NCBI GenBank assembly: GCA_014323765.1
Contig: JACONM010000034.1
Location: 25,076 to 89,075, forward strand
Length of the DNA: 64,000 bases
Direction: 5' to 3'
Origin: Cellvibrionales bacterium
GTDB lineage: Bacteria > Pseudomonadota > Gammaproteobacteria > Pseudomonadales > GM7GCV1
Shown one piece after another: positions 4,277 to 48,815 of the stretch. Every line of letters starts with the position of its first letter. The first letter of the stretch is position 1. Under the pieces are notes generated by a model. It was not told the origin of the DNA and did not search any database. It worked only from the letters and a program-made list of their open reading frames with translations. Made by a program: the position numbers and the translations under genes.

Positions 4277-4981
4277 ATGGCCAAGAAAACGCCTTTGGTG
4301 TTGCTGCCCGGCATGCTCTGCGATGGCCGCATGTGGCAAGCGCAAGTATCGGATTTAGCCGCTATTTGCGATCCCCTCATCATCGGCGATATTTCCCGAG
4401 CCAGCAGCATCCGCAAAATTGCCCAGCAAGTGCTGGCAACGGCACCGGGCCATTTTGCGCTGGCGGGCCTTTCCATGGGCGGCATTGTGGCCCTAGAGAT
4501 AGTGCGCCAAGCCCCTGAACGCATCACCCATCTAGCATTGCTGGATACCAACGCCTACGCCGAGAAGCCCGAGCGGCAAGCCAAGCGGGCCCATGAAATA
4601 GACTGTGCACAGGTTGGCCAGCTGCGCAAGCTGATGATCGAACAAATGAAACCGCTTTATCTGGCTAAAGCCAATCGCCAAAATCAAACCCTTTTGCATC
4701 TGGTGCTGGATATGGCGATGGATCTAGGCCCCGACGTTTTCGAGCGGCAGTCCATAGCACTGCGAGACCGACCCGACGCATCCGGCACACTCGCCACCAT
4801 CCGCTGCCCCACACTGGTGCTGTGCGGTGCCGAAGATGCCCTGTGCCCAGTCGCCTATCACCAATATATGCAATCCCAAATTCCCAATGCCCGGCTGGAG
4901 ATTATCGATAATTGCGGCCACCTGTCGGCACTGGAATGTCCACAGCAGGTCAATACTCACCTGCGCCAGTGGCTCCAATAA
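4277..4981 (+). CDS. alpha/beta hydrolase fold protein
   Basis: It begins MAKKTPLVLLPGMLCD and has the nucleophile elbow GLSMGG and a C-terminal CGH motif. The longer track ORF (3731) is an out-of-frame shadow over gyrB. Confidence 0.8.
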   Translation: MAKKTPLVLLPGMLCDGRMWQAQVSDLAAICDPLIIGDISRASSIRKIAQQVLATAPGHFALAGLSMGGIVALEIVRQAPERITHLALLDTNAYAEKPERQAKRAHEIDCAQVGQLRKLMIEQMKPLYLAKANRQNQTLLHLVLDMAMDLGPDVFERQSIALRDRPDASGTLATIRCPTLVLCGAEDALCPVAYHQYMQSQIPNARLEIIDNCGHLSALECPQQVNTHLRQWLQ

Positions 4982-4994
4982 AAAAACGCCCCAA

Positions 4995-5927
4995 CTAAGC
5001 CTTTAATCGATAAAAACGGCGGCAATTTTCACCCAATAACCCGCGCCTCTCAGCCGCAGAAAACCGCATAATAAGCTGGTTATACATGCCCCATAGAGTC
5101 TGGTAATCGATATACAGTTTATCCACCGGGAAATTAGAACCCAGCATACAGCGTTCAACCCCAAAAACATCCAGCACCTGATAAATAATATCGGCAGACC
5201 TATTCGGCTGCCACTTTTGACCAAACATACTCAGACCGGATATTTTGCAATGCACATTGGGCAGCGAGGCCAGCTTACGCAACCCGGTTAGCCACATTTG
5301 CTCGGTTTGTGAGTGTCGATACTGCTCATTTAAAAACCAAGGAGAGCCGCAATGACAAAGCACCACCTGCAACTGCTCAAATCGCTTAAAAACCGGATAG
5401 GCCCGCTCCATCTGTGCCGGAATAAGTTGCAAATCAAAACTCAATCCACGGGTAGCCAACGCACTCAGCCCGCGCTGCCAGTGCGGCGAATCGAGTAATA
5501 AATGGCTGCCAGTTTGCTGGTCTTCCCCCGGTGAACGGCCCAATATCTGGCGAATACCCCGCACCCCGGCGTAACTTTGAATGCGATCCAGCACTTGCGA
5601 TAAATCATCTGCTTCTAGGTCGGCATAAGCCACCATAGCCGCCGGCAGCTGACGATCAGCATTGCGGGACGCTTCAATTTGCCGCTGCACCCAAGCGGTC
5701 TCGGCGAGGTGCTGGCCAGCCGCCGCCCCCACCTCCACATGGACGCTTTCAATGACCGGCAAAGCACCAATATCCGCCTGCAAATCTGCAGTCAGATAAT
5801 TTTTCTGAATCGGGGCCGGGTTACCAAAAAAGCGCGGCGTTCCCAAGGGCGCATTTAGCCAGGGATAACAAACGGCATTTAAATCCCACAAATGATGGTG
5901 GGCATCGCAAATAGGAAAGTTGAACAA
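4995..5927 (-). CDS. amidohydrolase 2 family metal-dependent hydrolase
   Basis: The N-terminal ICDAHHHLW metal-binding motif and ~310 aa length fit a TIM-barrel hydrolase. It starts with TTG. Confidence 0.78.
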   Translation of the reverse strand: MFNFPICDAHHHLWDLNAVCYPWLNAPLGTPRFFGNPAPIQKNYLTADLQADIGALPVIESVHVEVGAAAGQHLAETAWVQRQIEASRNADRQLPAAMVAYADLEADDLSQVLDRIQSYAGVRGIRQILGRSPGEDQQTGSHLLLDSPHWQRGLSALATRGLSFDLQLIPAQMERAYPVFKRFEQLQVVLCHCGSPWFLNEQYRHSQTEQMWLTGLRKLASLPNVHCKISGLSMFGQKWQPNRSADIIYQVLDVFGVERCMLGSNFPVDKLYIDYQTLWGMYNQLIMRFSAAERRGLLGENCRRFYRLKA

Positions 5928-5946
5928 GAGAAACTTAGCAACAAAA

Positions 5947-7008
5947 TTACAACGTATTCTGAGCCGCTCTAGCGCGGTAGATATCCGTTAGAACGGATAA
6001 TTCATCAAACACGGTCCACTCTTCCACAATTTTGCCATCGATAAGGCGGTAATGGCTCTCCCCCAAAATATACAGGGTTTGTCCGCTGGGTTTTCCATAG
6101 CGGGCACTGCCCGTGTGAACGCCGGAAATCGACCACCGCACCGCCAGATCGACTCCCCGATCCCGGTTTGGCTGCTGGCAAACATAATCGGCGGAAAACC
6201 GCAGTTCCGATAAAGTGCCCAACATCTGCATGTAAAAACCGATTATCGCCGCATGGCCATGCAATTCACAGCCCGGGGTGCCGTGCAACACGGCATCCGG
6301 CGCATAGCTTTGATAGACATCGCCCACCATGCGGGCATTCCAAATATTATGCAAACTGGACCGAATAAATGACTCGGGGTCATCCCCCGCCACCTGCCGC
6401 TGAAAATCCACCTGCTGTTGCAAGCGTTGCCGTTGTTCATCCCGCCATGCAGTTAGACGCTCGGAAACTGGTTTCAGAGCCCAGTGTTGCGCCACTTGTT
6501 GAGGATCCTTGCCGAGTTGCTGCGCTAAGGAATAATTGTCCCGCACCAGCCATTCTTCGATAATACGGTTATTTTTAATAACGCAGTGGGCGATCACTAA
6601 TATGGTGGCTTCTTTGTGGGCGGCAACGCCGTATTCGGAGTCACTAGTGTTGGTCATATGGCTGCGAATAAGGTGGGAGGTATGAAACCCGGTTTGCTCA
6701 TCGCCCGCCCAAATAAGATTGACCGCTTCAAGAGTTCGATCGGGAAACGATGCCAAGGTGGTCAGGGTATTTTGGGTGACCTCTGCAGCACCGATGGTCA
6801 CCCCCGCTAGGGTATAGACCGGGCAGTCTGGGGAATAATAATCCAGACAAAGACCCACCTGTTTGCCTTCCCAAATGCGCCGTGTGACGCGCAAAATATA
6901 ATCCGTAATATCGGTAAATTCCGGGTCAAATCCACGCATGGCGGGCACCGCCGCGCTGGCCTTTTCAGCGGCGGGAGCACTATCGTGATGATGTTGCAGG
7001 TGAGTCAT
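5947..7008 (-). CDS. tandem SnoaL-like / NTF2-fold protein (ester-cyclase-like)
   Basis: The two halves each end in a similar NRIIEEW / GKIVEEW strand motif typical of SnoaL-type folds. Confidence 0.6.
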   Translation of the reverse strand: MTHLQHHHDSAPAAEKASAAVPAMRGFDPEFTDITDYILRVTRRIWEGKQVGLCLDYYSPDCPVYTLAGVTIGAAEVTQNTLTTLASFPDRTLEAVNLIWAGDEQTGFHTSHLIRSHMTNTSDSEYGVAAHKEATILVIAHCVIKNNRIIEEWLVRDNYSLAQQLGKDPQQVAQHWALKPVSERLTAWRDEQRQRLQQQVDFQRQVAGDDPESFIRSSLHNIWNARMVGDVYQSYAPDAVLHGTPGCELHGHAAIIGFYMQMLGTLSELRFSADYVCQQPNRDRGVDLAVRWSISGVHTGSARYGKPSGQTLYILGESHYRLIDGKIVEEWTVFDELSVLTDIYRARAAQNTL

Positions 7009-23543: not shown

Positions 23544-24296
23544 TCATCCACCCGGGTCGGCGGGCGCAACCAACTCCCCATACGCCCCCCGCGACCATTC
23601 TTCCACCTGCCGGTTTAGTTCATCAGCCTGCAACCCCTGCGGGTCGATGGGTTTGCCGATGTGCAGGCGGATGGTGCCGGGGCGGAATTCGGATTTGCGC
23701 CAGCATTCGCCGGAGTTTTGCACCATCGGCAACAGGGGTGCGCCGCTTTGCACCGCCAGCTGAAACGCGGCGCGGGCGTATTTGCGCAACGCCCCCGGTG
23801 CCACCCGCGTGCCCTCAGGGAAAATCAGCACATTGCTGCCCGCCTGCAAACGCGCGGCTCCCTTGCTGAGCACGGCATGCATAGCCACCCGCGGCGCACT
23901 GCGGTCGATGCCGATGGCGTGGGTCAGCCGCTGCCCCCAGCCGTAGACCGGAATGCGCAGCAGGGATTCTTTCATGACGATGGAAGCCGGGCACAGCAAC
24001 CGCGCCAGATACAGGGTCTCCCATTCCGACTGGTGATTGCACACGGCAATGCAGGGGCCGGTGGGCAGGTTCTCGCGCCCGGTAACCTCAACGCGAATGC
24101 CCGCCGCCCACCGCAACCCGGGGCCGCTCATCAGGGCCGGCCACAGGGTGGCAATGCGCATGCGGAGGCGATAGGGCAGCAGGGCACCGATGGTCAGCAG
24201 AAACAGCCCGGTCAGCACCATGGTGGCAAAATAGAGACCGAAATAGCCCCAGCGGCGCACCCGGTTAAGCGTTGGGCGGTCGATTTTCTCAGTCAC
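23544..24296 (-). CDS. plsC: 1-acyl-sn-glycerol-3-phosphate acyltransferase
   Basis: It has the catalytic NHQSEWE (HX4D-type) motif and FPEGTR, and overlaps the glyS stop. Confidence 0.88.
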   Translation of the reverse strand: MTEKIDRPTLNRVRRWGYFGLYFATMVLTGLFLLTIGALLPYRLRMRIATLWPALMSGPGLRWAAGIRVEVTGRENLPTGPCIAVCNHQSEWETLYLARLLCPASIVMKESLLRIPVYGWGQRLTHAIGIDRSAPRVAMHAVLSKGAARLQAGSNVLIFPEGTRVAPGALRKYARAAFQLAVQSGAPLLPMVQNSGECWRKSEFRPGTIRLHIGKPIDPQGLQADELNRQVEEWSRGAYGELVAPADPGG

Positions 24297-26394
24297 TGTC
24301 CGCCGCCGGGGCCAGCGCAGAAATATCGGCCACGCTCAAAAACAAGCCACGCAATTCCCGCAGCAGACCAAGGCGATTGGCCCGCACTTTTTTATCCTCA
24401 ACATTGACCATAACATGGGCAAAAAAAGCATCGATCGGCGCATGCAGCCCCAGCAATAATTTCAGAGCCGCCGCATGCTGGCCCGCTTGCAACAGCGGGG
24501 CTAGGGCCTCCGCCATCTGCGTCACCGCCGCCCACAGTTGCCGCTCCTCGTCCGCCACGAACAACGCCGGGTCCACCGCCTGCGGCTCGGCACCAGCGGA
24601 TTTTTCCAAGATGTTGGCCACCCGCTTATTCAGTTGCGCCAAGGCTTTAGCCTCGGCACTGGCGGCAAATTCCGCGACCGCTAAAGTGCGGGCGTGAATC
24701 TCCGCTGGGTCGTCCAGCCCCAGAGCGCGCACCGCCAGAAAGGCTTCCGCCGCCACCCCACGCTCGGCAAACCAAGCGGCAAAGCGTTCCAAAATATAAT
24801 CGAGCAGCCGCTCTGTCAGCGCAGCGGCAGGCTCCGTCAACCCGCTGTGCAATGCGCTGGCGCGCTCGATCAGATCGCGCAAACTCAGCGCATGCCCGCC
24901 CTCCACCAGCAGGCGCAAAACGCTCAAGCTGGCGCGGCGCAGGGCGAAGGGGTCGCGTGAGCCGGATGGCGGCTGGCCGATGCCGAATAATCCGGTCAGG
25001 CTATCGAGCCGGTCAGCCAAGGCCAAGGCGGTGCCGACCGCCGTTTGCGGCAAGCGGTCGCCGGCAAAGCGCGGCAAATAATGCTCGCCAATGGCCTCCG
25101 CAACCGCCGCCGCCTCGCCGCTCGCCAGCGCATAATGGCGGCCCATCACCCCCTGCAACTGCGCAAATTCCAGCACCATTTGCGACACCAGATCGCATTT
25201 GCAAAGGCCCCCAGCACGGGCAGCCACTTCGGGATCGGCCCCCACCAGCGGGGCGATCTGCGCCGCCAACGCCGCCACCCGCTCGCTTTTGGCATAGACT
25301 GAACCGAGCGATTCCTGAAAAATGACCGCCTTGAGCCGCTCGCGAAAATCCGCAAACGCCGTCTTTTTATCCGCCTCATAGAAAAACGCCGCATCCGCCA
25401 AACGCGAGCGCATCACCCGCTCATTACCACCCACCACCCGCTGCGGCTGGCGCGATTCGATATTGGCGACGCCGATAAACCCCGGCAGCAACGCGCCCTT
25501 GTCGTCCACTGCATGAAAGCACTTCTGATGTTCGCGCATGGCGCAGATCAACGCCTCCGCCGGCACGCTCAGAAAACGCCGATCGAACCGCCCGGCCAGA
25601 GCCACCGGCCACTCGACCAGCGCAGCCACTTCATCCAGCAACTCGGCATCGATGACCGCCCGCCCGCCGAGCTCAGTCTGCGCCAAATCCTCCACCGCCC
25701 GCCGAATCTGCTCGCGCCGCCGCGCCAAATCGGGCTCCACCTTGCCCGCCGAGCGCAGCAACGCCGGGTAACCGGCGGCAGCCGGCACGGCAATCTCGCC
25801 AGGGGCATGAAAGCGATGCCCGCGACTCACCCGCCCGATCGGCACCCCAAAAACCTCCCCAGCAACGGGCTGGCTACCAAATAATATCAACGCCCAATGA
25901 ATGGGGCGCACAAATTCAGCCCGCCCCGCCCCCCAGCGCATGCGTTTAGCGATCGGCAACGATTCCAGCGCACTCTGGACAATCGCCGGCAACAAGGCGG
26001 CGGTGGCTCCCCCCGGGATGCGCCGGAGGTAAGCGAGTCGTGCGCCCTTGGAAGAATTGCCGGGATCATCGATCTGTTGAAGATCAGTCACCGCCACCCC
26101 GACCTTGCGGGCAAACCCCTGCGCCGCGGCGGTAGGGTTCCCCGCCGCATCAAACGCCACCGCCACGCTGGGGCCAAGCAGCCGCTCATCGCGGTCCGGC
26201 TGCTGAGCGGCGACATCGCGAATCAGCAACGCCAAGCGCCGCGGGCCGGCCAGCCGACCGCGGGATTGGCCGCAGGCAATGCGCTGGCGTTCCAGCCCGG
26301 CGCAGACCGCAGTCTCAAAGGCCGCCCGCAACGGCTCCAAGGATTTCGACGGCAATTCCTCAGTGCCGATTTCCACCAGCAGGTCGGCGCGCAT
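24289..26394 (-). CDS. glyS: glycine--tRNA ligase beta subunit
   Basis: It is 701 aa, begins [15 protein letters not shown], and lies immediately downstream of glyQ with a 1-nt overlap. Confidence 0.95.
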   Translation of the reverse strand: MRADLLVEIGTEELPSKSLEPLRAAFETAVCAGLERQRIACGQSRGRLAGPRRLALLIRDVAAQQPDRDERLLGPSVAVAFDAAGNPTAAAQGFARKVGVAVTDLQQIDDPGNSSKGARLAYLRRIPGGATAALLPAIVQSALESLPIAKRMRWGAGRAEFVRPIHWALILFGSQPVAGEVFGVPIGRVSRGHRFHAPGEIAVPAAAGYPALLRSAGKVEPDLARRREQIRRAVEDLAQTELGGRAVIDAELLDEVAALVEWPVALAGRFDRRFLSVPAEALICAMREHQKCFHAVDDKGALLPGFIGVANIESRQPQRVVGGNERVMRSRLADAAFFYEADKKTAFADFRERLKAVIFQESLGSVYAKSERVAALAAQIAPLVGADPEVAARAGGLCKCDLVSQMVLEFAQLQGVMGRHYALASGEAAAVAEAIGEHYLPRFAGDRLPQTAVGTALALADRLDSLTGLFGIGQPPSGSRDPFALRRASLSVLRLLVEGGHALSLRDLIERASALHSGLTEPAAALTERLLDYILERFAAWFAERGVAAEAFLAVRALGLDDPAEIHARTLAVAEFAASAEAKALAQLNKRVANILEKSAGAEPQAVDPALFVADEERQLWAAVTQMAEALAPLLQAGQHAAALKLLLGLHAPIDAFFAHVMVNVEDKKVRANRLGLLRELRGLFLSVADISALAPAADSD

Positions 26395-27320
26395 CAGCCC
26401 GCCCCGCCCGACTCATTGGCACCCCGCGCCAACGGAAAGCCCAGTGCCTGGCGCGATTCAAAATACGCCTGCGCCACCCGCCGCGCCAGCCGCCGCACCC
26501 GCAAAATAAAACGCTGCCGCTCGGTGGCCGCGACAGCATGCCGCGCATCCAGCAGATTAAAAGCATGCGATGCCTGCATCACCCGCTCATAGGCCGGCAG
26601 CGGCAAATTGCCATCCAACAGCCGCATGCAATCGGCTTCATGGGCGGCAAAAGCGGCGAACAAAAACTCGGTGTTAGCCTCGGCAAAATTGTAAGCGGAC
26701 ATTTCCACCTCATTTTGTTTGAACAGGTCGCCGTAGGTCAACGCACCGCCCGCCGGATGTTGCGTCCAGAGCAGGTCATAGACGCTGTCGACCCCCTGCA
26801 AATACATGCCGATGCGCTCCAGCCCATAGGTGATCTCGCCGCTGACCGGAAAACACTCCAGCCCGCCAACCTGCTGAAAATAAGTGAACTGCGTCACCTC
26901 CATGCCGTTCAACCACACCTCCCAACCCAGCCCCCAAGCCCCCAGAGTGGGCGATTCCCAATCGTCCTCCACAAAGCGAATATCATCGGTCAGCGGGTCA
27001 ATGCCCAAACTCCGCAACGAGTCCAAATAGAGATCCTGAATATCCTCCGGCGACGGCTTCAGAATCACCTGAAACTGATAGTACTGTTGCAAGCGGTTCG
27101 GGTTGTCGCCGTAACGCCCATCGGTGGGGCGGCGGCACGGCTGGACATAGGCCGCATTCCACGGCTCCGGGCCGATGGCACGCAAAAAAGTGGCCGGGTG
27201 AAAGGTGCCCGCCCCCACTTCCATATCGAGCGGCTGCAAAACGGCACAACCCCGCTCGCTCCAATAGAGTTGCAACGCCGCGATCAGGTCTTGAAAGCTA
27301 GGACCAGCGATGGCGTTCAC
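26394..27320 (-). CDS. glyQ: glycine--tRNA ligase alpha subunit
   Basis: The translation [46 protein letters not shown] is a highly conserved GlyQ sequence. Confidence 0.96.
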
Positions 27321-27500: not shown

Positions 27501-28745
27501 GTGTCACTGAGAAAGAAAACCGTCCCGCCAAAAGACCAGCAGATCGCCAACCACACCATCTTCACCGGCGACAATCTAGACATCATGCGCGGCATGAATT
27601 CCGCCAGCATCGACCTGATCTACCTCGACCCCCCATTCAATTCCAACCGCCACTATTCCGCCCCCATCGGCTCCAAAGCAGCCGGGGCCGAATTCAAAGA
27701 TGCCTGGACTTTCGAAGACACCAAAGACGCATGGTGGGGCCTAATCGCCGACCACCACCCAGCCCTCTTCAAGGTCATCGACGCGGCAGGTGACATCGGC
27801 AACACCGGCGACAAAGCCTATCTAATCTACATGGCCATGCGCCTGATTGAGATACACCGCATCCTAAAACCCACCGGCTCCCTCTACCTACACTGCGACC
27901 CGACCATGAGCCATAGCTTAAAGATGGCTATGGATGCGATTTTTGGTCACGCAAATTTTATCAACGAAGTGATTTGGCATTATCAGACCGGCGGCGCGAG
28001 CCGCAATCATTATTCTAAAAAACATGACGTAATTCTTTTTTACCGGGCTTCCCGCACCTACACGTTTAACGCAAAAGATGTAAGAGTGCCCCGCACCGAT
28101 GAAGTTTTACGCAGATTAGCATCCGGAAGTGATGCCGCTACACGCGCAACCGATGCAACCAAATTAGCAATGGATGTATGGGCCGACATTCAGGCTCTAA
28201 ATGCTATGGCGACAGAAAGGGTTGGCTATCCAACTCAAAAACCGCTTGACCTATTAAGACGCATCATCGCCGCTTCCAGCAACGAAGGCGACATAGTACT
28301 CGACCCATTTTGCGGCTGCGCCACGGCCCCTTTAGCGGCGGAAGATCTAGGCCGCCAATGGATCGGCATCGATATTGCCCCCCTAGCCGCAAAACTAGTC
28401 GTCCAACGCATGCGCGACGAACTCAACCTATTCGGCGATATAATACACCGCCAAGATATCCCCATCCGCACCGAAGACCTGAAACCACCGAGCGAAAACA
28501 TCACCCACATCCTGTTCGGCCTACAAGAAGGCAAATGCAACGGTTGCGGCATCAGCTTCCCCTTCCAAAACTTCACCCGCGACCACATAATCCCCCGCTC
28601 AAAAGGCGGCCCCGACACAGACAAAAACCTACAGCTACTCTGCGGTCGCTGCAATTCCATAAAAGGCAACCGCGACATGCCCTACCTAAAAGCCCGTCTA
28701 ATCGAGGATAGGATTATTGACAGGCCGAGGAGGGATGATGGATAA
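27501..28745 (+). CDS. N6/N4 DNA methyltransferase (beta-class, DPPF) fused to a C-terminal HNH endonuclease domain
   Basis: It has DLIYLDPPFNSNR (motif IV) near the N-terminus and YPTQKPLDLLRRII...VLDPFCGCATA (motif I). The C-terminus reads CNGC...DHIIPRSKGG...NLQLLCGRCNSIKGNR (CxxC-HNH-CxxC). It starts with GTG. Confidence 0.88.
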   Translation: MSLRKKTVPPKDQQIANHTIFTGDNLDIMRGMNSASIDLIYLDPPFNSNRHYSAPIGSKAAGAEFKDAWTFEDTKDAWWGLIADHHPALFKVIDAAGDIGNTGDKAYLIYMAMRLIEIHRILKPTGSLYLHCDPTMSHSLKMAMDAIFGHANFINEVIWHYQTGGASRNHYSKKHDVILFYRASRTYTFNAKDVRVPRTDEVLRRLASGSDAATRATDATKLAMDVWADIQALNAMATERVGYPTQKPLDLLRRIIAASSNEGDIVLDPFCGCATAPLAAEDLGRQWIGIDIAPLAAKLVVQRMRDELNLFGDIIHRQDIPIRTEDLKPPSENITHILFGLQEGKCNGCGISFPFQNFTRDHIIPRSKGGPDTDKNLQLLCGRCNSIKGNRDMPYLKARLIEDRIIDRPRRDDG

Positions 28746-28899
28746 GATTCTCTACGACAAGGCTTGCACAATTTTAGACAGAACCCTTGACAGCCTGTCA
28801 CCAGCCCTCTACTATCATCCACAGCGGTTGGAATTGCCGCAACAGTGCGTACAGGAACGAACCGTTTTGCTATGGTTCGTCAAGCCTGTGCGGTATTGA
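28735..28899 (+). CDS. small hypothetical protein (about 54 aa)
   Basis: The ATGATG start overlaps the MTase stop (GATGATGGATAA). I recognise no family, and coding is uncertain. Confidence 0.3.
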   Translation: MMDKILYDKACTILDRTLDSLSPALYYHPQRLELPQQCVQERTVLLWFVKPVRY

Positions 28900-28926
28900 A
28901 ATCGACTAGAGTGATGGGAGGGCATC

Positions 28927-29349
28927 ATGGCAGAGAAAGTGACACTTCGTTTGCGTTTGGAGGATGCCGAGTTTGAGGCAACTGGCTCTGAAACTTTTGT
29001 CCATTCTGTGTGGAAGGAATTTTTCTCCAAGTTTGGGGGATCGGGTGTCTCTTCAGGCAAGCCTTCGATCAGCCCACCGAAAAGTAGCATGTCTAAATCT
29101 GCTAAGAAGCCAGCACCCAAAGCCAAGGCCCGGAACTCAAAGAAAACGCCAGCATATCACAAGAATGACGAATTCGCTAACGGAGAGATGGGAGCAAAAT
29201 TCATAAGCGAATGGGAAAAAATTAACCAAAAACCTAAAGGCGCAGTAAAAACAAATATTGTTTTTATGTATTTACTAAAAGAAAAGCTGCAATATTCACC
29301 AGTTGATTCAAATCTTCTTTACACTTGCTATAAAGTGCTTAGCCTATAA
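28927..29349 (+). CDS. hypothetical protein with a K/S/P-rich linker; the frame stays open to 29484 past an in-frame TAA
   Basis: A GGGAGGG RBS lies 5 nt upstream of the ATG. A ~40 aa N-terminal domain is followed by a basic low-complexity linker (SKSAKKPAPKAKARNSKK) and a C-terminal domain. I see no family match by eye. Confidence 0.55.
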   Translation: MAEKVTLRLRLEDAEFEATGSETFVHSVWKEFFSKFGGSGVSSGKPSISPPKSSMSKSAKKPAPKAKARNSKKTPAYHKNDEFANGEMGAKFISEWEKINQKPKGAVKTNIVFMYLLKEKLQYSPVDSNLLYTCYKVLSL

Positions 29350-29485
29350 ATCCCCAATATTCCAACAAGCGTAAGGAATGCGATGGGCAAATACACAGCT
29401 ATCGATTTTAACGATTGGAGCGACTTGAAGCTCACTGTAAAGGGAGAAAACATGGCGCGAGAATTGATAGAGGCTAGCGACTAAT

Positions 29486-30223
29486 ATGTCGAATGACTTA
29501 GCTCGATTCGTATCTTCTCTTCAGTTCATTTCGTTAAAAACAATGGACAAAGTGGAAGCATTGCTCTGGTGGCATGGGGTCAATAAAACAAACGGTAATG
29601 GCCGAGTTAAGTTTAGCCAAATTAAACAGGAAATTGAAAACGCCAATCATGGCGAACTTCCAAGGAATGCAGCTTCTCTCATAATCAGGAAAAACGGTGT
29701 GGTAAAAGACAAGAATTCTGGCTGCTATTACCTTAGAACTAGTCGGGTTAATGAGTTATCGGAAGCTTATAGCGAATTTTTAGCCCCTACACCAAGAACT
29801 TCATCCAGTCTTCTTTTAGAAGAAGACTTTAAGGATACGCGGAGATATGTTGAAGCCGTCATCCGTCAAATAAATGTCAGCTATGATGAAAAATTATATG
29901 ATTGTTGCGCGATCATGATACGCCGATTGATTGAAACTCTTATAATTGAGTTATTTGAACGCAAAAAAGTCGCCAATGAGATAAAATTTGACGGTGGGAA
30001 TTACAAGATGCTAAAAGAAATATTGAATACTCTTAATGCGAGCCAATCAGTCAGCATTTCCCGGAAATCTCAAAATATCCCAAAATTGGAAAAATTTAAA
30101 GAGAATATAGCAGATAAATCAGCGCACAACAGAACTTTCAATGCCAAAAAATCTGACATTGACAATGTATGGGAAGATTTAAGGGCAATTATCCTGGATT
30201 TAAAAGCTCAGGCTTTCGATTAG
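29486..30223 (+). CDS. hypothetical protein; C-terminal half resembles a DUF4145-type helical module
   Basis: The ATG lies 1 nt after the preceding frame's stop, in an AT-rich stretch. The pattern CCAIMIRRLIETLIIELFE ... LEKFKENIADKSAHN ... WEDLRAIILDL is DUF4145-like. This is recognition by eye only. Confidence 0.55.
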   Translation: MSNDLARFVSSLQFISLKTMDKVEALLWWHGVNKTNGNGRVKFSQIKQEIENANHGELPRNAASLIIRKNGVVKDKNSGCYYLRTSRVNELSEAYSEFLAPTPRTSSSLLLEEDFKDTRRYVEAVIRQINVSYDEKLYDCCAIMIRRLIETLIIELFERKKVANEIKFDGGNYKMLKEILNTLNASQSVSISRKSQNIPKLEKFKENIADKSAHNRTFNAKKSDIDNVWEDLRAIILDLKAQAFD

Positions 30224-30394
30224 ATCTTTCTACCGCTCTCCAATCTCAATCAGTCCGCTTCACTCTCCCTCGCTCCTTTAAGTAGAAACATGTTAGATTA
30301 AAATTTCTAAACTAGGGTCGCACCCCCACTTAGCCATGTAAAGCCTCCTCGTTACCCTATTTCAGGGGCGATACAAAATTTTAGAAAAATTCTC

Positions 30395-30472
30395 TTGACA
30401 CTAGACATAGCAAGGTCTTACAGTAGGCAGTCTAGTAAAAGGAGGCGGTCCGGGTGCTTTGTCTAGTATAAT
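30395..30472 (+). promoter_or_regulatory. candidate promoter(s) and repeated GTCTAGT motif upstream of the Dam-type MTase
   Basis: TTGACA (30395-30400) is followed 18 nt later by TACAGT. ACTAGAC (30400-30406) is the inverted form of GTCTAGT, which occurs at 30430-30436 and 30461-30467. TATAAT lies at 30467-30472. Confidence 0.4.
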
Positions 30473-30519
30473 GGCAGGCAAACGAATCACTTATCAGAAA
30501 CTGATTGTGAGACGAAGTT

Positions 30520-31398
30520 ATGACTAGAAAAGCCCATTATACCGAAGACATCCCGGCTACCTTTGAGTATGTGGTGGTTGGCGAACAGATGATGGATGTG
30601 CGCTATAGTGTTCCTACCACCCCCACCACCCCATCAAAGGTGCGCTCACCGCTACGCTACCCAGGCGGCAAAAGCCGTGCGGTGGATACCATCTTAGATC
30701 TGATGCCACCCGGGCTTGATTGTATTGCCAGCCCATTTTTCGGCGGCGGCAGCATTGAGCTTGCCTTAGTAAGCAATGGAGTTCAGGTATCTGGCTACGA
30801 TATTTTTGAGCCGCTAGTCGCTTTTTGGCAGGCCGCAATCAATGCTCCCCAAGCACTTGCCAAACGAGTTGCGGTTTATCACCCGATGAACCGCGACATT
30901 TTTTATTCACTGCAGAAAAAAATGCGCGACGACAGGGTGCTCGATACAGATATAGCGGCGGTGTTTTTTGCGCTAAACCGGTGTAGTTTTTCTGGAACAA
31001 CTTTATCCGGTGGGATGTCCCCCGGGCATCCTCGTTTCACGCAATCGTCCATAGACCGGGTATGCAATTTTGATAGCCATGGACTACTATCCGTTGAGCG
31101 ACTAGGGTTTGAAGAAAGCATCGCTCGCCACAGCAACGATTTTCTTTATTGCGACCCGCCTTACGCCAATGGGGGAGCACTGTATGGACAACGCGGCGAT
31201 TGCCATGTGGATTTTGATCATGAATCGTTGGCCGAGATATTAACGTCTCGCGATGGGTGGATTCTGTCTTACAACGATTGCCCTATAGTTCGCGACTTAT
31301 ATGCTGGCTTTACTGTGCTTGATGCCGCTTGGTCTTATGGGATGAATAGCGACAAAAAAAGCAACGAGATCCTAGTTTTGTCTAAAGACTTGATGTAG
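30520..31398 (+). CDS. Dam-family (alpha-class, D12) N6-adenine DNA methyltransferase
   Basis: LRYPGGKSR, SPFFGGGS (AdoMet motif I) and YCDPPYA (motif IV) occur in the alpha-class order. Confidence 0.9.
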   Translation: MTRKAHYTEDIPATFEYVVVGEQMMDVRYSVPTTPTTPSKVRSPLRYPGGKSRAVDTILDLMPPGLDCIASPFFGGGSIELALVSNGVQVSGYDIFEPLVAFWQAAINAPQALAKRVAVYHPMNRDIFYSLQKKMRDDRVLDTDIAAVFFALNRCSFSGTTLSGGMSPGHPRFTQSSIDRVCNFDSHGLLSVERLGFEESIARHSNDFLYCDPPYANGGALYGQRGDCHVDFDHESLAEILTSRDGWILSYNDCPIVRDLYAGFTVLDAAWSYGMNSDKKSNEILVLSKDLM

Positions 31399-31403
31399 TT
31401 ACA

Positions 31404-32294
31404 ATGGGTAAGCAAGTCATCAATGGGCTGGGCTTTGAGTATGCTATAGCCCATGCACTGAACCGAATTTTGCATTGCGGCATTGCGCAGAATACCGCTG
31501 CCAAAAAATGCGCGACGGCTTACCGTGCAATGGATAAAAATATCAGAATAAAGGCGGATGTTTCGGCAGAAAAAATAGCGGCTTTTCTGCTGCAGTGCGA
31601 TAAGCGACTAAATCATGCTGTCACAATATCTATTCAGGGTAGTGCGGAAGGTCGGACGGGTGATGTTCGCGATGTTTTGATCGATTGTGTCGACAGTGAA
31701 ATAGGAATCAGTGCCAAACATCGCCATTACGATGTCAAGCATCCGCGCCTATCCAGCAAGATCGACTTCGGCAAGCAATGGGGTGACCAGCCTGTGAGCG
31801 ATACATATTGGCGCAGAGTTAAGCCGATATTTGAAGATTTGCAAGAGCGACGGCTTCGAGGAGAAAAATGGCGCAACATACCGAATAAGCAAGGCACTAT
31901 CTATTTGCCACTGCTAATCGCATTTCAAGATGAGCTAGAAAGGCTGTGCGCAGATTACGGCAGGCAATTTATTCCGCGATTCTTTCACTACCTCATAGGG
32001 CGCAATGATTTTTACAAGGCCATTTGTGATACACATGAGTCGGTCGTTGAATCCATTAACCTTAATGGAACACTGGCATGGGGCGATAAATGGAAAATAC
32101 CCGATCGCATCCAGTCGGTAAATAGAGCCACCAATAGTGAGACCATATTAATTGTCACCTTCGAGGGCGGCTGGCAAATTAGCTTCCGCCTGCATAGTGC
32201 CAGTAGCAAAGTGGAACCTAGCCTAAAGTTTGCAGTGAGTTTTATTGGTGTCTCAAGCAAGGTGAGTAGAATCACCTTGTCGCATGATGATTGA
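31404..32294 (+). CDS. putative type II restriction endonuclease partner of the Dam-type MTase
   Basis: It starts 5 nt after the MTase stop and is equally AT-rich. A possible PD-(D/E)XK-like core is GDVRDVLID..DSEIGISAKH. I could not assign a family by eye. Confidence 0.5.
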   Translation: MGKQVINGLGFEYAIAHALNRILHCGIAQNTAAKKCATAYRAMDKNIRIKADVSAEKIAAFLLQCDKRLNHAVTISIQGSAEGRTGDVRDVLIDCVDSEIGISAKHRHYDVKHPRLSSKIDFGKQWGDQPVSDTYWRRVKPIFEDLQERRLRGEKWRNIPNKQGTIYLPLLIAFQDELERLCADYGRQFIPRFFHYLIGRNDFYKAICDTHESVVESINLNGTLAWGDKWKIPDRIQSVNRATNSETILIVTFEGGWQISFRLHSASSKVEPSLKFAVSFIGVSSKVSRITLSHDD

Positions 32295-44477: not shown

Positions 44478-45935
44478 ATGAATCGCTTATATTACGGCGA
44501 CAACCTAACCATCATGCAGGAAATGGAACCCGCCAGCGTCGATCTCATTTACCTCGACCCACCCTTTAATTCCAACCGCTCCTACAACGCCATCTACAAA
44601 GATGAAACCGGTCGGCCTCTTCCGGACCAGATCGATGCCTTTTGCGATCTATGGACGCTAAACGAAGAGCATGAGCGAGCCATCCGCCATATGCCAGTGA
44701 TCCTGCGAGAAGCAGGGCTAGACGATGAAACAGTCGAATTCTGGCGACTGTGGATGAACGCCCTACGAAAAACCCAACCCACCATGCTGGCGTATCTGTC
44801 TTACATGATGCAGCGACTCATTGTAATGAAGCGACTGCTACGCCCCACCGGCTCAATTTATCTGCACTGCGATCCCACAGCCAGCCATTACATCAAAGTA
44901 ATGATGGATGTGGTTTTTGGGAATAAAAATTTTCTCAATGAGATCGCGTGGTGCTACAAATCGGGCGGTGCCAGCAAACGTTGGTTTGCCCGCAAGCACG
45001 ATGTGCTGCTGTATTATGCGCATTCAAAAGGAAGCCACTTATTCCATCCGATAAAAATAAAATCATACGGTCAAAGCGGCGGAGGGCAAGGCGGCAAAGT
45101 TAAATATCACAAAGACAGTCAAGGCACCTATTCGATTGTAAGTGCCCGTGATTGGTGGGAAATATCGATGCTTTCAACTACGCATCCGGAACGCCTAGGC
45201 TACGCCACTCAAAAACCATTAGCCCTGCTAGAACGGGTAATCCAAGCCAGCAGCAACGAAGGCGACACAGTCCTAGACCCTTTCTGCGGCTGCGCCACCA
45301 CCTTAGAAGCCGCGCACCGACTTAAGCGAAATTGGATCGGCATAGACATTGCCATCCACGCCATAAAGCGAGTAGCCGCTATCCGCCTAGGCGAACGCTG
45401 CCACCTAAAGCAAGGCAAAGACTTTGCAATAGCCGGGATCCCACACAGCCTAGAAGGCGCAAAAGATTTATGGGAGCGAGACAAGTACCACTTCCAGAAA
45501 TGGGCCGTGGAGGAAGTAGATGGGTTTGTTACCGCCAAGCGCACCGCCGATGGCGGCATAGACGGCAGGCTGTACTTCGACATGCCCGGCCAGCGCGATC
45601 TGCAAAGCATGATCCTAGAAGTCAAGGGCGGTAAAAATGTCAGCATCGCCGACTTCCGCGCTTTGCACAGTGTCCTAGAGCGAGAAGAAGCCTTAATGGC
45701 TGGCTTAATCACCATGGAACCGCTACCCGACCGCCAAAAAACCAACTTCCTAAAACTGGCCGCCCAAGCCGGCGACCTAGAAATGCCCGGCTCAATCCGC
45801 CATTACCCCAAACTCCAGATCCTATCCGTACCCGAAATCCTAGAAGGCAAGCGGTTTGCAACCCCTACTCCTATGGGGAAGTCTGGATCTTTACAAAACA
45901 GATTCAGCTATGCCGCTAACCCAAGCGATTGTTGA
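44478..45935 (+). CDS. N6/N4 DNA methyltransferase (DPPF) fused to a C-terminal Mrr-like PD-(D/E)XK restriction-endonuclease domain
   Basis: It has DLIYLDPPFNSNR and ATQKPLALLERVI...VLDPFCGCATT. The C-terminus reads FQKWAVEEV...ADGGIDGRLYF...MILEVKGGKN, the Mrr catalytic-domain pattern. Confidence 0.85.
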   Translation: MNRLYYGDNLTIMQEMEPASVDLIYLDPPFNSNRSYNAIYKDETGRPLPDQIDAFCDLWTLNEEHERAIRHMPVILREAGLDDETVEFWRLWMNALRKTQPTMLAYLSYMMQRLIVMKRLLRPTGSIYLHCDPTASHYIKVMMDVVFGNKNFLNEIAWCYKSGGASKRWFARKHDVLLYYAHSKGSHLFHPIKIKSYGQSGGGQGGKVKYHKDSQGTYSIVSARDWWEISMLSTTHPERLGYATQKPLALLERVIQASSNEGDTVLDPFCGCATTLEAAHRLKRNWIGIDIAIHAIKRVAAIRLGERCHLKQGKDFAIAGIPHSLEGAKDLWERDKYHFQKWAVEEVDGFVTAKRTADGGIDGRLYFDMPGQRDLQSMILEVKGGKNVSIADFRALHSVLEREEALMAGLITMEPLPDRQKTNFLKLAAQAGDLEMPGSIRHYPKLQILSVPEILEGKRFATPTPMGKSGSLQNRFSYAANPSDC

Positions 45936-45988
45936 TGGCGGCACTAATTCAACCGTGGTAAGCGGTCGAGTGCCACCCAAGCCAGTGT

Positions 45989-46130
45989 AAAATTGCAAAT
46001 AAATGGCATACAATCGGTATCATGGTGGAGCGCACGAAACCGTACTCGAGACAGCAGACATAGAGGAAACCACAGTGACGGCAATGGAAAATTCTAACGC
46101 TGCCTGCCCGTTTATCCGGAGACCCTGCCC
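45989..46130 (+). promoter_or_regulatory. conserved leader/promoter block, copy 2
   Basis: It has the same ordered blocks as 44341-44477, with identical 20-nt spacing between AAAATTGC and TACAATCG. Confidence 0.5.
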
Positions 46131-47744
46131 GTGAACCGTCTATATTACGGCGACAACCTAACCATCATGCAGGAAATGGAATCCGCCAGCGTCGATCTCA
46201 TTTACCTCGACCCACCGTTCAATTCCAACCGTGACTACCACGCCATCTACAAAAGCGAGACCGGTCGCCCCATAAACGCCCAAGTGGTCGCCTTCACCGA
46301 CCAATGGGAATACACGGCTCGTACCGAAGCCGCCAGTAAAGAACTGCCGCATGCAATGGCCGCGGTCGGTATTGATGGTACTTGGTGGCTCGGCTTAGCC
46401 AGTATGCTCCGCGCCAGCGACCCGCCATTGCTGGCTTACCTCACCTATATGACCGAGCGGCTAATAATAATGCGCCGCCTGCTCAAACCCACCGGCAGCC
46501 TTTATTTACACTGCGACGACGAAGCTGTCCATTACCTAAAAATTGTGCTGGACGGAATTTTCGGACGCACCAATTTCCGCAATCAAATTGCATGGCAACG
46601 CATAAAAGGGGCCGGCAAACGCAGCCAACACGGAATCAAAAATTACGGACGTTCATCGGATATCCTCCTTTTTTACAGTGCCGGCAAAACCTACACCTTT
46701 AATGCGCAAGCAATTAGCCTACTGTACGCTGACATTGAAAAATCTTTTCCGTTCACGGATAAAAAAGGCCGTTACAAACGAAGAAGTCCATTCCGCCCCC
46801 CGGGTTTAGGTCCGCGCCCAAATCTTTGTTACGAATACAAAGGGGTTTTCCCCCCGCACCCTTCTGGCTGGACAGTAAAAGAAAGTAAATTGGCCGCGCT
46901 AGATAAGGCGGGGGAGTTAGAATGGATCGGGCAAAAACCTTGGCGCAAACAGCGACCATCCAGCGGCATAGTCCCGAACAACATCTGGACGGACATCAAC
47001 CCCCCATCAAAAAGCGAGCGCCTAGGCTACCCCACCCAAAAGCCCCTAAAACTCCTCGACCGCATAATAAAAGCCAGCAGCAACGAAGGCGATCTAGTCC
47101 TAGACCCCTTTTGCGGCTGCGCAACCACCATCGAGGCCGCACACCGATTGAATCGCCGATAGATCGGCATCGATATCGCCTACTACGCCATCAAATGCGT
47201 CTCCCGCGACCGCCTAGCCGACCAACTCAACCTGATTCCGGATCAGCACTTCGCCATCGAAGGGGTGCCCAATTCCTTCGAGAGCGCACTCGACCTATGG
47301 ACGCGAGATCCTTACCACTTCCAACAATGGGCAGTAAGCCTTGTCGAAGGAATCGTCCTCGCCCGCCAAAGCGGTGATAAAGGCATAGACGGCTGGATAT
47401 TCTTCGACCTGCCCGATCAAAAAGACTGCGCCGGCATGGTGCTAGAAGTCAAGGGCGGCCAAAACCCGACTGCCGAAAATGTCCGCAGCCTAGGCGGCGT
47501 ACTCGACCGCGAACCGTTCGCCGAAATGGCCGGCCTAATTCTGCTACACCCACCGGGAACTCAAAAACGCCGCAACTTCGAGACTGAAATGGCCGCCGCC
47601 GGCCACCTCGAAGTCAAAGGCCGAAAACACCCCCGCATGCAAATCCTCACCATCGAAGAAATACTCGCCGGCAAACAATTCGACTTACCCGCCCCACCCC
47701 GCACCAGCCGCGATCCCAATCGCCAGTTGACGGGCATCCTTTAA
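46131..47744 (+). pseudogene. paralogous MTase/Mrr-like nuclease fusion interrupted by one in-frame amber codon (TAG 47160-47162)
   Basis: ORFs 46131-47162 and 47265-47744 are in the same frame. RLNRR*IGIDIA aligns with RLKRNWIGIDIA in the paralogue (TGG to TAG). The central region is divergent. Confidence 0.8.
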
Positions 47745-47822
47745 CAGAGTAAGTTTGCCGAATTCAACTCAAGCATCTGTCGTTTTTTCTATCGGGATAT
47801 GAAAACCTTTGAGGAAGGATAA

Positions 47823-48815
47823 ATGAATCAAGCAAAATGTCCAATAACTGGACTTCCAGCGGTCTATCGAAATGGCTTCAATACAGGCATACATTACTAC
47901 AGCGTGGATGATACTGAGCTTTCCTACGGGATTACTAGGGAGGCAAGAGAAGACAAACTGCCAATATTAAAGAAGGAGAAAGTTCAACTGAAGTTGACCA
48001 AACTTGCATTTTGGATCTTGCAACAGAATAGACGCGGTATTAGGAATCCCGTTATTTATTCGGCTGACGTTGACTATTTGGTGAACATGCCAATGCCACG
48101 TCTTCGTGACAGGATGGTCAGTTTTATGTCTTCGTTTCGACAGGCAACGAATGGAACGCTTATCAAAATAAACGCAGCTAGATTTATTCCCGTATGGAGA
48201 ATTGCGTCATGTTCTTTTAATGATGATGATTTAGCTTCGTTTATCGAGCAGATGACATCGCTTGGTTACATTGATTGTAAATTTTCTCGTACCATGAGTG
48301 GTGTTGTATTCGGGAACGCCTCTTTGACATTTGCCGGGTTGCAATTTTTGGAAGAATTGGAATCAAAAAATGCACTTTCGAAAGAAGTTTTCCTCGCAAT
48401 GTGGTTTGACTCTTCAATGGATATACTTTTCCGGCATTTAAAAGAAGAGTTTAAACGCAATACCGATATGGAATTGGTCCGGATAGATAAAACGGAACAC
48501 AACAACAAGATTGACGATGAAATAATCGCCCGCCTCAGAAGCAGTCGTCTGGTCATCGCCGATTTTACCTGCGCTGATGCGGGTAAAGCTCATCGCGGCG
48601 GCGTTTATTATGAAGCGGGGTTTGCTCATGGCCTGAATAGACATGTGATTTTCACTGTTAGAGAAGATTGCGTTAAAAACCTTCATTTTGATACACGACA
48701 ATATAATCACATTGTTTGGAAGCAAAATGAATCCAGTGAGCTGGTCGTGGCAGGAGATGAAAACAAACCACTCGGACAAGCCATATTGGAGAGGATTCAA
48801 GCCCTTGGGGCTTAA
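47823..48815 (+). CDS. hypothetical protein: unknown N-terminal region, winged-helix-like middle, C-terminal nucleoside 2-deoxyribosyltransferase/TIR-like domain
   Basis: It is the most AT-rich gene in the window. Its C-terminus (VFLAMWFD...IDDEIIARLRSSRLVIADFT...GGVYYEAGFAHGLNRHVIF) matches the NDT-like Rossmannoid pattern by eye. Confidence 0.6.
   Translation: MNQAKCPITGLPAVYRNGFNTGIHYYSVDDTELSYGITREAREDKLPILKKEKVQLKLTKLAFWILQQNRRGIRNPVIYSADVDYLVNMPMPRLRDRMVSFMSSFRQATNGTLIKINAARFIPVWRIASCSFNDDDLASFIEQMTSLGYIDCKFSRTMSGVVFGNASLTFAGLQFLEELESKNALSKEVFLAMWFDSSMDILFRHLKEEFKRNTDMELVRIDKTEHNNKIDDEIIARLRSSRLVIADFTCADAGKAHRGGVYYEAGFAHGLNRHVIFTVREDCVKNLHFDTRQYNHIVWKQNESSELVVAGDENKPLGQAILERIQALGA

Follow-up and report, generated by a model that had tools for sequence, protein, structure and literature searches.

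A conserved two-gene module of a partner protein and a probable winged-helix/HEPN-type effector, with an interrupted copy in a genomic island of a Cellvibrionales bacterium

Background

DUF4145 was recognized as a divergent version of the HEPN RNase domain in a 2013 survey by Anantharaman et al., which also records, in its census, fusions of DUF4145 to a 'SIGMA-HTH' and other N-terminal domains and its presence in restriction-modification (R-M) operons, and proposes an R-M-linked suicide role for HEPN proteins (PMC3710099). Proteins with this domain are used in defense in RAZR (PMC13017515), BxaP (PMC10799925) and Ishtar (bioRxiv 10.64898/2026.07.06.735840). RAZR (PD-T7-4) is an abortive-infection RNase that combines a zinc finger with a DUF4145/HEPN domain and requires R146 and H154, an Rx7H arrangement (PMC13017515). 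Here we present the analysis of a locus in a 64,000-nucleotide (nt) stretch of the genome of a Cellvibrionales bacterium, a sponge symbiont (GenBank assembly GCA_014323765.1, contig JACONM010000034.1, positions 25,076 to 89,075), which is referred to as the window in its full length and to which all coordinates without a locus label refer. The locus comprises two open reading frames (ORFs), ORF2 and ORF3, at 28927-30223 of the forward strand. Our reading, to which we give slightly better than even credence, is that it represents a conserved autonomous module of a partner gene and a gene for a winged-helix/HEPN-type effector, that the partner controls the effector, and that the local copy is broken.

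Like RAZR, the proteins of this module combine a small sensing or docking domain with a helical domain of the DUF4145 type in which a histidine is conserved, and both RAZR and the module are found near defense genes. Moreover, just as RAZR carries a zinc finger in its single chain, some members of the partner family that includes ORF2 (type A in the following) have N-terminal zinc ribbons. However, RAZR is a single polypeptide, whereas here the sensor-like parts reside on a separate partner and the effector has a winged-helix N-terminal domain; further, the R146 of the Rx7H motif that RAZR needs is replaced in the ORF3 family by a lysine, which is displaced in ORF3 itself. AbiJ, BxaP (PMC10799925) and Ishtar1 (bioRxiv 10.64898/2026.07.06.735840) likewise link a DUF4145/HEPN-type domain to a variable accessory domain and are associated with defense, but they are single-gene systems with other accessory domains and no significant sequence match to ORF3.

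In its layout, the module resembles the HEPN-MNT (HepT/MntA) and other HEPN toxin-antitoxin pairs, which have the regulator upstream, the HEPN gene downstream, frequent overlaps and a scattered distribution (PMC3710099). It differs from HEPN-MNT in that its partner is not a nucleotidyltransferase, belongs to no Pfam family and is apparently coupled to the effector via a shared winged helix. The general picture in that survey, namely N-terminal fusions and R-M operons, is matched by our loci; a dedicated upstream partner with a probably homologous winged helix and a strict link between partner and effector N-terminal domain go beyond its accessible account (PMC3710099). Our search of family libraries and of the literature, as far as the accessible texts extend, found neither this architecture of two genes nor the partner families described, and likewise no account of how strictly partner and N-terminal domain go together or of the exchange of effectors reported below.

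Results and discussion

A conserved pair of partner and effector genes

In 42 of 80 loci sampled from species genomes and in 47 of 80 from metagenomes, the ORF3-like gene is immediately preceded by an ORF2-like gene. The junctions between partner and effector range from -25 to +31 nt and mostly lie between -4 and +9 nt; in many loci the last 4 nt of the partner gene overlap the effector gene. On the contig of the closest ORF3 relative (L001), an ORF2-like gene for 166 amino acids (aa) (MTEKVTLRLRFGDVEFEVSG...) ends 4 nt before the ORF3-like gene. Among the 148 loci that could be judged, 87 have both the N-terminal domain of ORF3 and a partner, nine have the domain only, two the partner only, and 50 neither, an association with a Fisher p of 1.5e-27 in a calculation that ignores the kinship between loci. 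Versions of about 170 aa that consist of DUF4145 only have no partner, and in several of the nine domain-only exceptions a different small ORF lies upstream or a transposase is inserted. Both ORF2 and ORF3 are real genes, and together they constitute a conserved autonomous two-gene module. The hosts of the paired module are distributed patchily across many phyla, with partner clusters extending from Proteobacteria to Patescibacteria, and no conserved third gene was found beside the pair except among close relatives. About 90 pairs display the layout of type II-like toxin-antitoxin systems, i.e. small, adjacent, co-directional, coupled and conserved genes.

The preliminary description of the locus had envisaged a cassette of three genes, the first being ORF1 (28735-28899, forward strand; 54 aa, or 53 aa from the ATG at 28738). 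As it had noted, the ATGATG start of ORF1 overlaps the stop of the upstream gene for a methyltransferase (MTase) with an HNH domain (TAA at 28743-28745), the overlap being 11 nt from the first ATG and 8 nt from the second. ORF1 is predicted by a gene caller, and its composition (GC 0.485; GC at third codon positions 0.58) is like that of the MTase gene and unlike that of ORF2 and ORF3. It has no homolog in about 170 related loci and no match in Pfam, PADLOC, NCBIfam or PHROGs. A promoter-like TTGACA-17-TACTAT sequence at 28787-28815 lies within it, such sites being regionally no commoner than expected by chance. The coding status of ORF1 is hence unsupported and the unit is reduced to ORF2 and ORF3, outside of which the ORF1 region may serve as the leader or promoter region of the module.

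The partner gene of the window is cut by a nonsense codon

ORF2 (28927-29349, forward strand) is the 5' fragment of a type-A partner gene, and its 140-aa product comprises an N-terminal beta-beta-alpha domain (residues 1-35), a linker rich in K, S and P whose basic nature had been correctly described, and the first half of a winged-helix-like domain. The fragment terminates at a premature TAA (29347-29349, forward strand), at the alignment position where the motif 'K/R-I/V-P' has its conserved K/R. An in-frame 3' remnant of 44 codons and a TAA at 29482-29484 (29350-29484, forward strand) codes for the remainder of this domain; it aligns with the C-termini of intact partners, and inside it a gene caller predicts a 33-aa ORF at 29383-29484. 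The alignment with P0103 (206 aa), the closest relative that is intact, continues through the stop (YTCYKAAKIRVPANL versus 'YTCYKVLSL*IPNIP' in the window), and larger partner alignments place the TAA at a nearly invariant K/R. Together with its continuation, ORF2 ends a single nucleotide (29485) before ORF3; this gap at 29484/29486, already reported, is the usual junction of the module family. Thus, ORF2 and the 44-codon continuation are one gene cut by a nonsense codon. The coordinates of the earlier '140 aa with a possible 45-codon continuation' stand, with 44 sense codons and the TAA making up the continuation. The change behind the premature stop was likely AAA to TAA.

We rejected a sequencing error as the source of the stop since the island that includes it was recovered with the same TAA in four independent sponge-metagenome assemblies, among them a variant of 99.88% identity. 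A recoded stop was likewise rejected, as TAA also ends the MTase gene and the continuation of ORF2. ORF2 and its continuation have no significant match in Pfam, PADLOC, NCBIfam or PHROGs, and a structural model of P0103 from a two-sequence alignment reached a pLDDT of only 42.7 and was not used for fold searches. The nonsense codon halves the winged-helix-like domain of the partner and, because half of the presumed coupling domain is lost thereby, the copy in the window is most likely inactive or decaying.

The window is not alone in having a degenerate partner gene. At L081 (7003-8573) the partner is broken up into two ORFs beside a shortened effector. At L093 and L094 an ORF for an IS630-type transposase stands upstream of the ORF3-like gene, at the place of the partner.

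Domain architecture and motifs of the effector

ORF3 (29486-30223, forward strand) encodes an effector-type protein of 245 aa. Its AlphaFold2 model, obtained with the family alignment, has a mean pLDDT of 90.5 and displays a winged helix, a linker and a helical bundle. The winged-helix domain (approximately residues 1-99; nt 29486-29782, forward strand) has predicted helices at residues 19-33, 43-52 and 62-68 and strands at 72-74 and 80-83, i.e. the three-helix core followed by the beta-hairpin wing that are characteristic of this fold. It is linked to a C-terminal DUF4145-like HEPN-type domain (approximately residues 120-245; nt 29843-30220, forward strand), which is modeled as entirely helical over residues 120-244. 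In Foldseek searches of the PDB, local matches of the N-terminal part were to the winged helices of MUS81 (probability 0.96), LOTUS (0.90) and Cdc6, all with E > 0.1, and those of the C-terminal part were to AF_0298 (2hsb; probability 0.92, target-normalized TM-score 0.68, E 1.7), followed by Csm6/Csx1. Profile searches of PDB sequences returned nothing useful for either the ORF3 family, which matched no solved structure, or the partner family.

Sequence searches recovered 101 homologs of ORF3 at E <= 1e-3, the closest outside this organism at 3e-66. Full-length relatives are few: P0002 shows 52% identity and the next ones about 35-38% (P0003 to P0005 about 35%), many of the others align over the C-terminal 130 residues only, and a metagenome scan with ORF3 alone detected no close relative. 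A precomputed match to PF13643 (DUF4145) is available for about 30 of the 101, and in a direct scan P0045 scored above the gathering threshold (28.5 versus 23.1 bits), with P0005 (E 0.0016) and P0084 (E 0.042) below it. The earlier assignment of the C-terminal half to DUF4145 is thereby upheld through the homologs, and ORF3 would belong to this family only transitively and at its edge. ORF3 has no significant match in Pfam, PADLOC, NCBIfam or PHROGs, and none of the three ORFs matches PADLOC-DB v2.0.0 at E <= 1; the relatives of ORF3 yielded only weak PADLOC matches to AbiJ (E 0.003-0.04) and PD-T7-3. That ORF2 and ORF3 resemble no named defense system thus holds for this library.

The HEPN-like domain of the ORF3 family has 13 invariant charged or polar residues, namely R146, R147, E150, T151, E155, E158, R193, K205, D210, S212, A213, H214 and R216. 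The motifs read 'RRLIETLIIE' and 'GDKSAHNR', the latter being 'ADKSAHNR' in ORF3, where H214 (codon 30125-30127, forward strand) takes the position of the HEPN catalytic histidine. The family has 'GDKSAH' where a sister family encountered behind type-A partners has 'RNSSAH' ('GIRNSSAH', Rx4H).

Partner families and the shared winged helix

A search of 1.84 billion cluster representatives placed ORF2 in the type-A family, for which 998 clusters (50% identity) reach E <= 1e-3 and 329 of these E <= 1e-10. Their members are mostly 180-200 aa long, and all 998 clusters lack both a Pfam assignment and an informative name. The N-terminus contains a conserved beta-beta-alpha unit ('KLxIDLxxGxLEVEGSExFV'), the middle is a variable linker in which K, P, S and T abound, and the C-terminal domain has the consensus 'ERNLVFVYYLQ...DHIYTCY...K.P.AL.QSL.DT..KGWID'. 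Type-A partners also occur in Bacteroidota, where some have N-terminal double zinc ribbons. Further partners, termed type B, are found in Xanthomonas, Nocardiopsis, Acidobacteriota and many other bacteria; a unification of the two types into one family was rejected at the sequence level, with hhalign probabilities of 0.2-0.8%. The partner families have no match in PADLOC v2 or Pfam.

Profile comparison of the effector N-terminus with the C-terminus of type-A partners gave an hhalign probability of 91% (E 1.1e-6), which rose to 94.7% (E 5.7e-8) for alignments restricted to the two domains, against 2.9% for a reversed-sequence control. The C-terminal domain of type-A partners is hence probably, though not certainly, homologous to the N-terminal winged helix of ORF3.

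Exchange of effectors behind type-A partners

Eight type-A representatives were sampled for the genes that follow them. Six are succeeded, within -4 to +3 nt, by a gene for a protein of 240-259 aa, and four of these six proteins have a precomputed match to PF27235 ('AF_1680'), the proteins of this type being 245-259 aa long. All PF27235-type effectors align with the N-terminal domain of ORF3 and carry the canonical HEPN motif 'RNSSAH' (Rx4H; 'GIRNSSAHPS'). The downstream protein of L175 has an N-terminal domain like that of ORF3 (hhalign 95%), and two of the downstream proteins show weak DUF4145 matches. One of the six is PLD-like, with a match to the PADLOC candidate PDC-S05 (1.4e-10) and a weak match to DrmC; here (L179 5001-6293, and also L180) the type-A partner is coupled to a 240-aa protein with the motif LHDRYIFDD...GNSLN, the N-terminus of which was judged winged-helix-like by eye only, in an alignment. 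Hence, these sister modules share the partner family and the tight junction with the module of the window, and differ from it in the C-terminal domain of the effector, which is an Rx4H HEPN or a PLD-like nuclease domain in place of that with 'ADKSAHNR' in ORF3. Such swapping of effectors while the partner stays the same is the pattern known from modular conflict systems.

The remaining two representatives, P0103 and P0172, belong to a clade of stand-alone partners (L002 1888-2508; L169 2570-3232) beside a metH-like gene. They lack a downstream effector gene and keep a conserved position upstream of a gene for a homocysteine S-methyltransferase/MTHFR fusion, and might represent a domesticated or differently used version.

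Genomic context and the link to restriction-modification

The preliminary description had placed the locus between two methyltransferases as a candidate for an undescribed defense or R-M accessory module. As an R-M accessory, it would be co-transcribed with the gene of the MTase-HNH fusion and would act as a second-line HEPN suicide module that is released when R-M is overwhelmed. The local arrangement agrees with this idea, in that the cassette follows the MTase-HNH gene closely and in the same direction, and DUF4145 domains are reported in R-M operons in the 2013 survey (PMC3710099). Comparison across loci lends it some further support: a fusion of a beta-class methyltransferase to a nuclease is the only neighbor that recurs in unrelated loci, namely the window (HNH), L001 (Mrr_cat, divergently oriented) and L071, where it overlaps the stop of the ORF3-like gene by 4 nt. 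With the type III-like enzyme upstream of the module in L076, four paired loci, the window among them, have a methyltransferase next to the module. We take these cases as limited support for a link to R-M in a subset of loci.

Yet a census of the 146 nearest neighbors of 42 paired loci does not show a consistent co-occurrence with methyltransferase or restriction genes: only three of the 146 are N6_N4 methyltransferases, most modules have no methyltransferase nearby, and the pair stands alone in many phyla. Within the window, the steps in GC content (below) suggest that the MTase-HNH gene and the module were acquired separately, and the partner gene is broken. We therefore consider a dedicated R-M accessory role rather unlikely, and a specific tie to the MTase-HNH gene is not sustained at the level of the family.

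The census points to a broader range of associations. The Pfam families that are commonest among the neighbors are of the defense type, namely AAA_21 (6), DEAD (5), ResIII (4), N6_N4 methyltransferase (3), RloB (3), DUF1016 (2) and NgoFVII (2), and PADLOC matches include AbiLi, AriA, PbeA and PtuA-type ATPases. AbiL-like AAA_21/RloB pairs, type III R-M genes, transposases and resolvases are likewise seen beside the module, as are toxin-antitoxin pairs at L004 (TacA/TacT) and L178 (nucleotidyltransferase/HEPN). The association of the module with defense genes is suggestive only. In the Chitinophagaceae loci L049, L054 and L062 (approximately 4820-6780), the partner gene is immediately preceded by an AAA_21/RloB (AbiL-like) pair, and all four genes are co-directional and tightly packed; this arrangement is limited to close relatives. 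Taken with these contexts, the expectation that the locus is an undescribed conflict module fares well in that it is unnamed and has some defense genes as neighbors, and less well in regard to the R-M accessory role, ORF1 and the state of the local copy, which is degenerate.

Proposed mode of action and its alternatives

We posit that partner and effector associate through their related winged-helix domains, and that the effector is under the control of the partner, which would serve as an antitoxin-like inhibitor or else as the subunit that senses a trigger. Upon release or activation of the effector, its HEPN-type domain would act on RNA and growth would stop; growth arrest of this kind has precedents in HEPN toxin-antitoxin systems, HEPN-MNT pairs, AbiJ-type proteins and RAZR. 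By analogy with these systems, the role of the module is probably toxin-antitoxin-like or abortive-infection-like.

Several observations weigh against this proposal. At the level of sequence and structure, ORF3 itself has no match to PF13643 even at E <= 10, and the Foldseek comparison of its model, the best local matches of which were of the winged-helix and HEPN kinds, contains none at E <= 1e-3. On other alignments the similarity between the partner and effector domains was weaker (hhalign probability 13%, E 0.002), and type-B partners, which are paired with many ORF3-like genes, resemble neither type A nor the winged helix at a detectable level. The stand-alone P0103/P0172 clade shows that a type-A partner can occur on its own beside a metH-like gene. 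Many module loci are flanked by housekeeping or metabolic genes; the expectation that homologs would lie in defense contexts is accordingly borne out by the AbiL-like AAA_21/RloB, type III R-M, DUF1016 and NgoFVII neighbors and contradicted by these loci. Further, the ORF3 family lacks the canonical HEPN arginine, the position five residues before H214 being G or A (A209 in ORF3). The RAZR-type arginine position (-8) is occupied by lysine in the family and, owing to a one-residue insertion, K205 of ORF3 is at -9, so that neither an Rx4-6H motif nor the Rx7H of RAZR is present in ORF3. The absence of the canonical arginine renders RNase activity of the ORF3 family uncertain. Finally, the intact effector gene of the window persists beside a broken partner in at least two strain variants, and tblastn searches of 72,556 plasmids and 50,697 phage records with ORF3 were negative.

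Some of these points bear on a simpler explanation, in which the module serves addiction alone, as an ordinary type II-like toxin-antitoxin cassette that has no defense role of its own. The HEPN protein would then be the toxin, and the partner an antitoxin that binds DNA and represses its own expression. The small upstream gene with its 4-nt end overlap in many loci, the single insertions scattered among housekeeping genes, and the adjacency to other toxin-antitoxin pairs in L004 and L178 are all in keeping with it, and HEPN toxins with upstream antitoxins are established, as for HEPN-MNT systems (PMC3710099). In the window, however, it is the presumed antitoxin that is truncated and the toxin that is intact, which speaks against essential neutralization and argues that either the partner is not an indispensable antitoxin or this effector is harmless. 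Moreover, our search for an operator-like palindrome or inverted repeat upstream of ORF2 found none, the canonical catalytic arginine is absent, and the plasmids are devoid of matches. We regard a plain addiction cassette as unlikely on these grounds.

The loss of the arginine throughout the ORF3 family could also be explained by an inactive HEPN-like domain, with the winged-helix proteins acting not in conflicts but as regulators or nucleic-acid-binding housekeeping factors that are decaying in this genome. Inactive regulatory HEPN domains such as that of MtlR are known (PMC3710099), and the solitary P0103/P0172 clade with its conserved position, the many housekeeping contexts and another split gene in the window (46131-47744) would be compatible with such a role. 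Against it stand the invariance of the 13 residues in the HEPN-like domain, the frequency of defense genes among the neighbors, and the patchy presence across phyla, variable neighborhoods and exchange of the effector for a canonical HEPN or a PLD-like nuclease, which are marks of mobile conflict modules. We thus consider a function outside conflicts quite improbable, and retain the proposal of an effector under the control of its partner.

The island around the module

The module lies in a low-GC island (27501-32294, forward strand) between glyQ/glyS (24289-27320, reverse strand) on the left and an acyltransferase gene (from 32291) on the right. The first gene of the island, outside the module, encodes the 414-aa N6/N4 DNA methyltransferase with a C-terminal HNH nuclease domain (27501-28745, forward strand; Pfam N6_N4_Mtase 8.9e-43, HNH 3.3e-14). 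Beyond ORF3, and likewise outside the module, are genes for a D12-class (Dam-like) methyltransferase (30520-31398, forward strand; MethyltransfD12 3.9e-25) and a HaeIII-family restriction endonuclease (31404-32294, forward strand; RE_HaeIII 4.6e-66). Between ORF3 and this pair lie 296 nt that include a promoter-like sequence at 30395-30424, such sites being no more frequent in the region than by chance. HaeIII itself is paired with a C5-cytosine methyltransferase; hence, the combination of a HaeIII-family endonuclease with a D12-class N6-adenine methyltransferase looks unusual.

The cassette had been described as richer in AT than the flanking backbone, which is confirmed by the GC content of ORF2 (0.416) and ORF3 (0.374) against 0.60-0.65 for glyQ, glyS and the acyltransferase gene. 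With 0.53 for the MTase-HNH gene, 0.37-0.49 for ORF1 to ORF3 and 0.47-0.50 for the Dam/HaeIII pair, the island falls into three compositional blocks, and the steps from 0.53 through 0.37-0.42 to 0.47-0.50 suggest separate acquisitions. The island is probably a mosaic of three separately acquired pieces, the middle one of which is already decaying. The locus showed neither direct repeats at its flanks nor a tRNA integration site nearby, and no Rfam elements were found. In the plasmid and phage records the MTase-HNH protein was not encountered as a fusion, its relatives among the records listed matching by the methyltransferase part only (<= 74% coverage).

A second methyltransferase island is present in the window at 44478-48815. 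It contains a gene for a 485-aa N6_N4 methyltransferase (44478-45935), the C-terminal region of which aligns with the Mrr_cat-bearing C-terminus of the L001 enzyme, a second methyltransferase copy that is split into two ORFs (46131-47162 and 47265-47744), and a gene for a 330-aa protein with a weak nucleoside 2-deoxyribosyltransferase-like match (47823-48815). The split copy suggests that gene decay has also occurred elsewhere in this genome.

Conclusions

We present a two-gene module that has remained without a name in family libraries, in which a small partner gene precedes the gene for a winged-helix protein with a DUF4145-like HEPN-type domain. At the level of the family the lead is sound; the catalytic motif is atypical, the mechanism is a proposed one, and the copy in the window is degenerate. 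As a wider and more tentative proposal, which we hold to be possible though short of an even chance, the module might exemplify an unnamed large class of two-gene conflict systems, where a shared winged helix docks interchangeable effectors of the DUF4145-like HEPN, the canonical Rx4H HEPN ('AF_1680') and the PLD-like nuclease types, and the variable N-terminus of the partner, be it a beta-beta-alpha unit or a double zinc ribbon, senses the invader. If this were true, both the family, of defense or toxin-antitoxin systems, and its principle of coupling would be new.

Few kinds of effector are as common in bacterial immunity as HEPN-type RNases, and the way in which they are controlled and switched is known for few of them. 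The module described here offers a simple and widespread two-protein case, with about 1,000 partner clusters at 50% identity and an exchangeable effector, which copies of a single small domain seem to connect to its control subunit. Confirmation would bring a new family to the catalogs of defense and toxin-antitoxin systems and provide a tractable system for the study of HEPN regulation.

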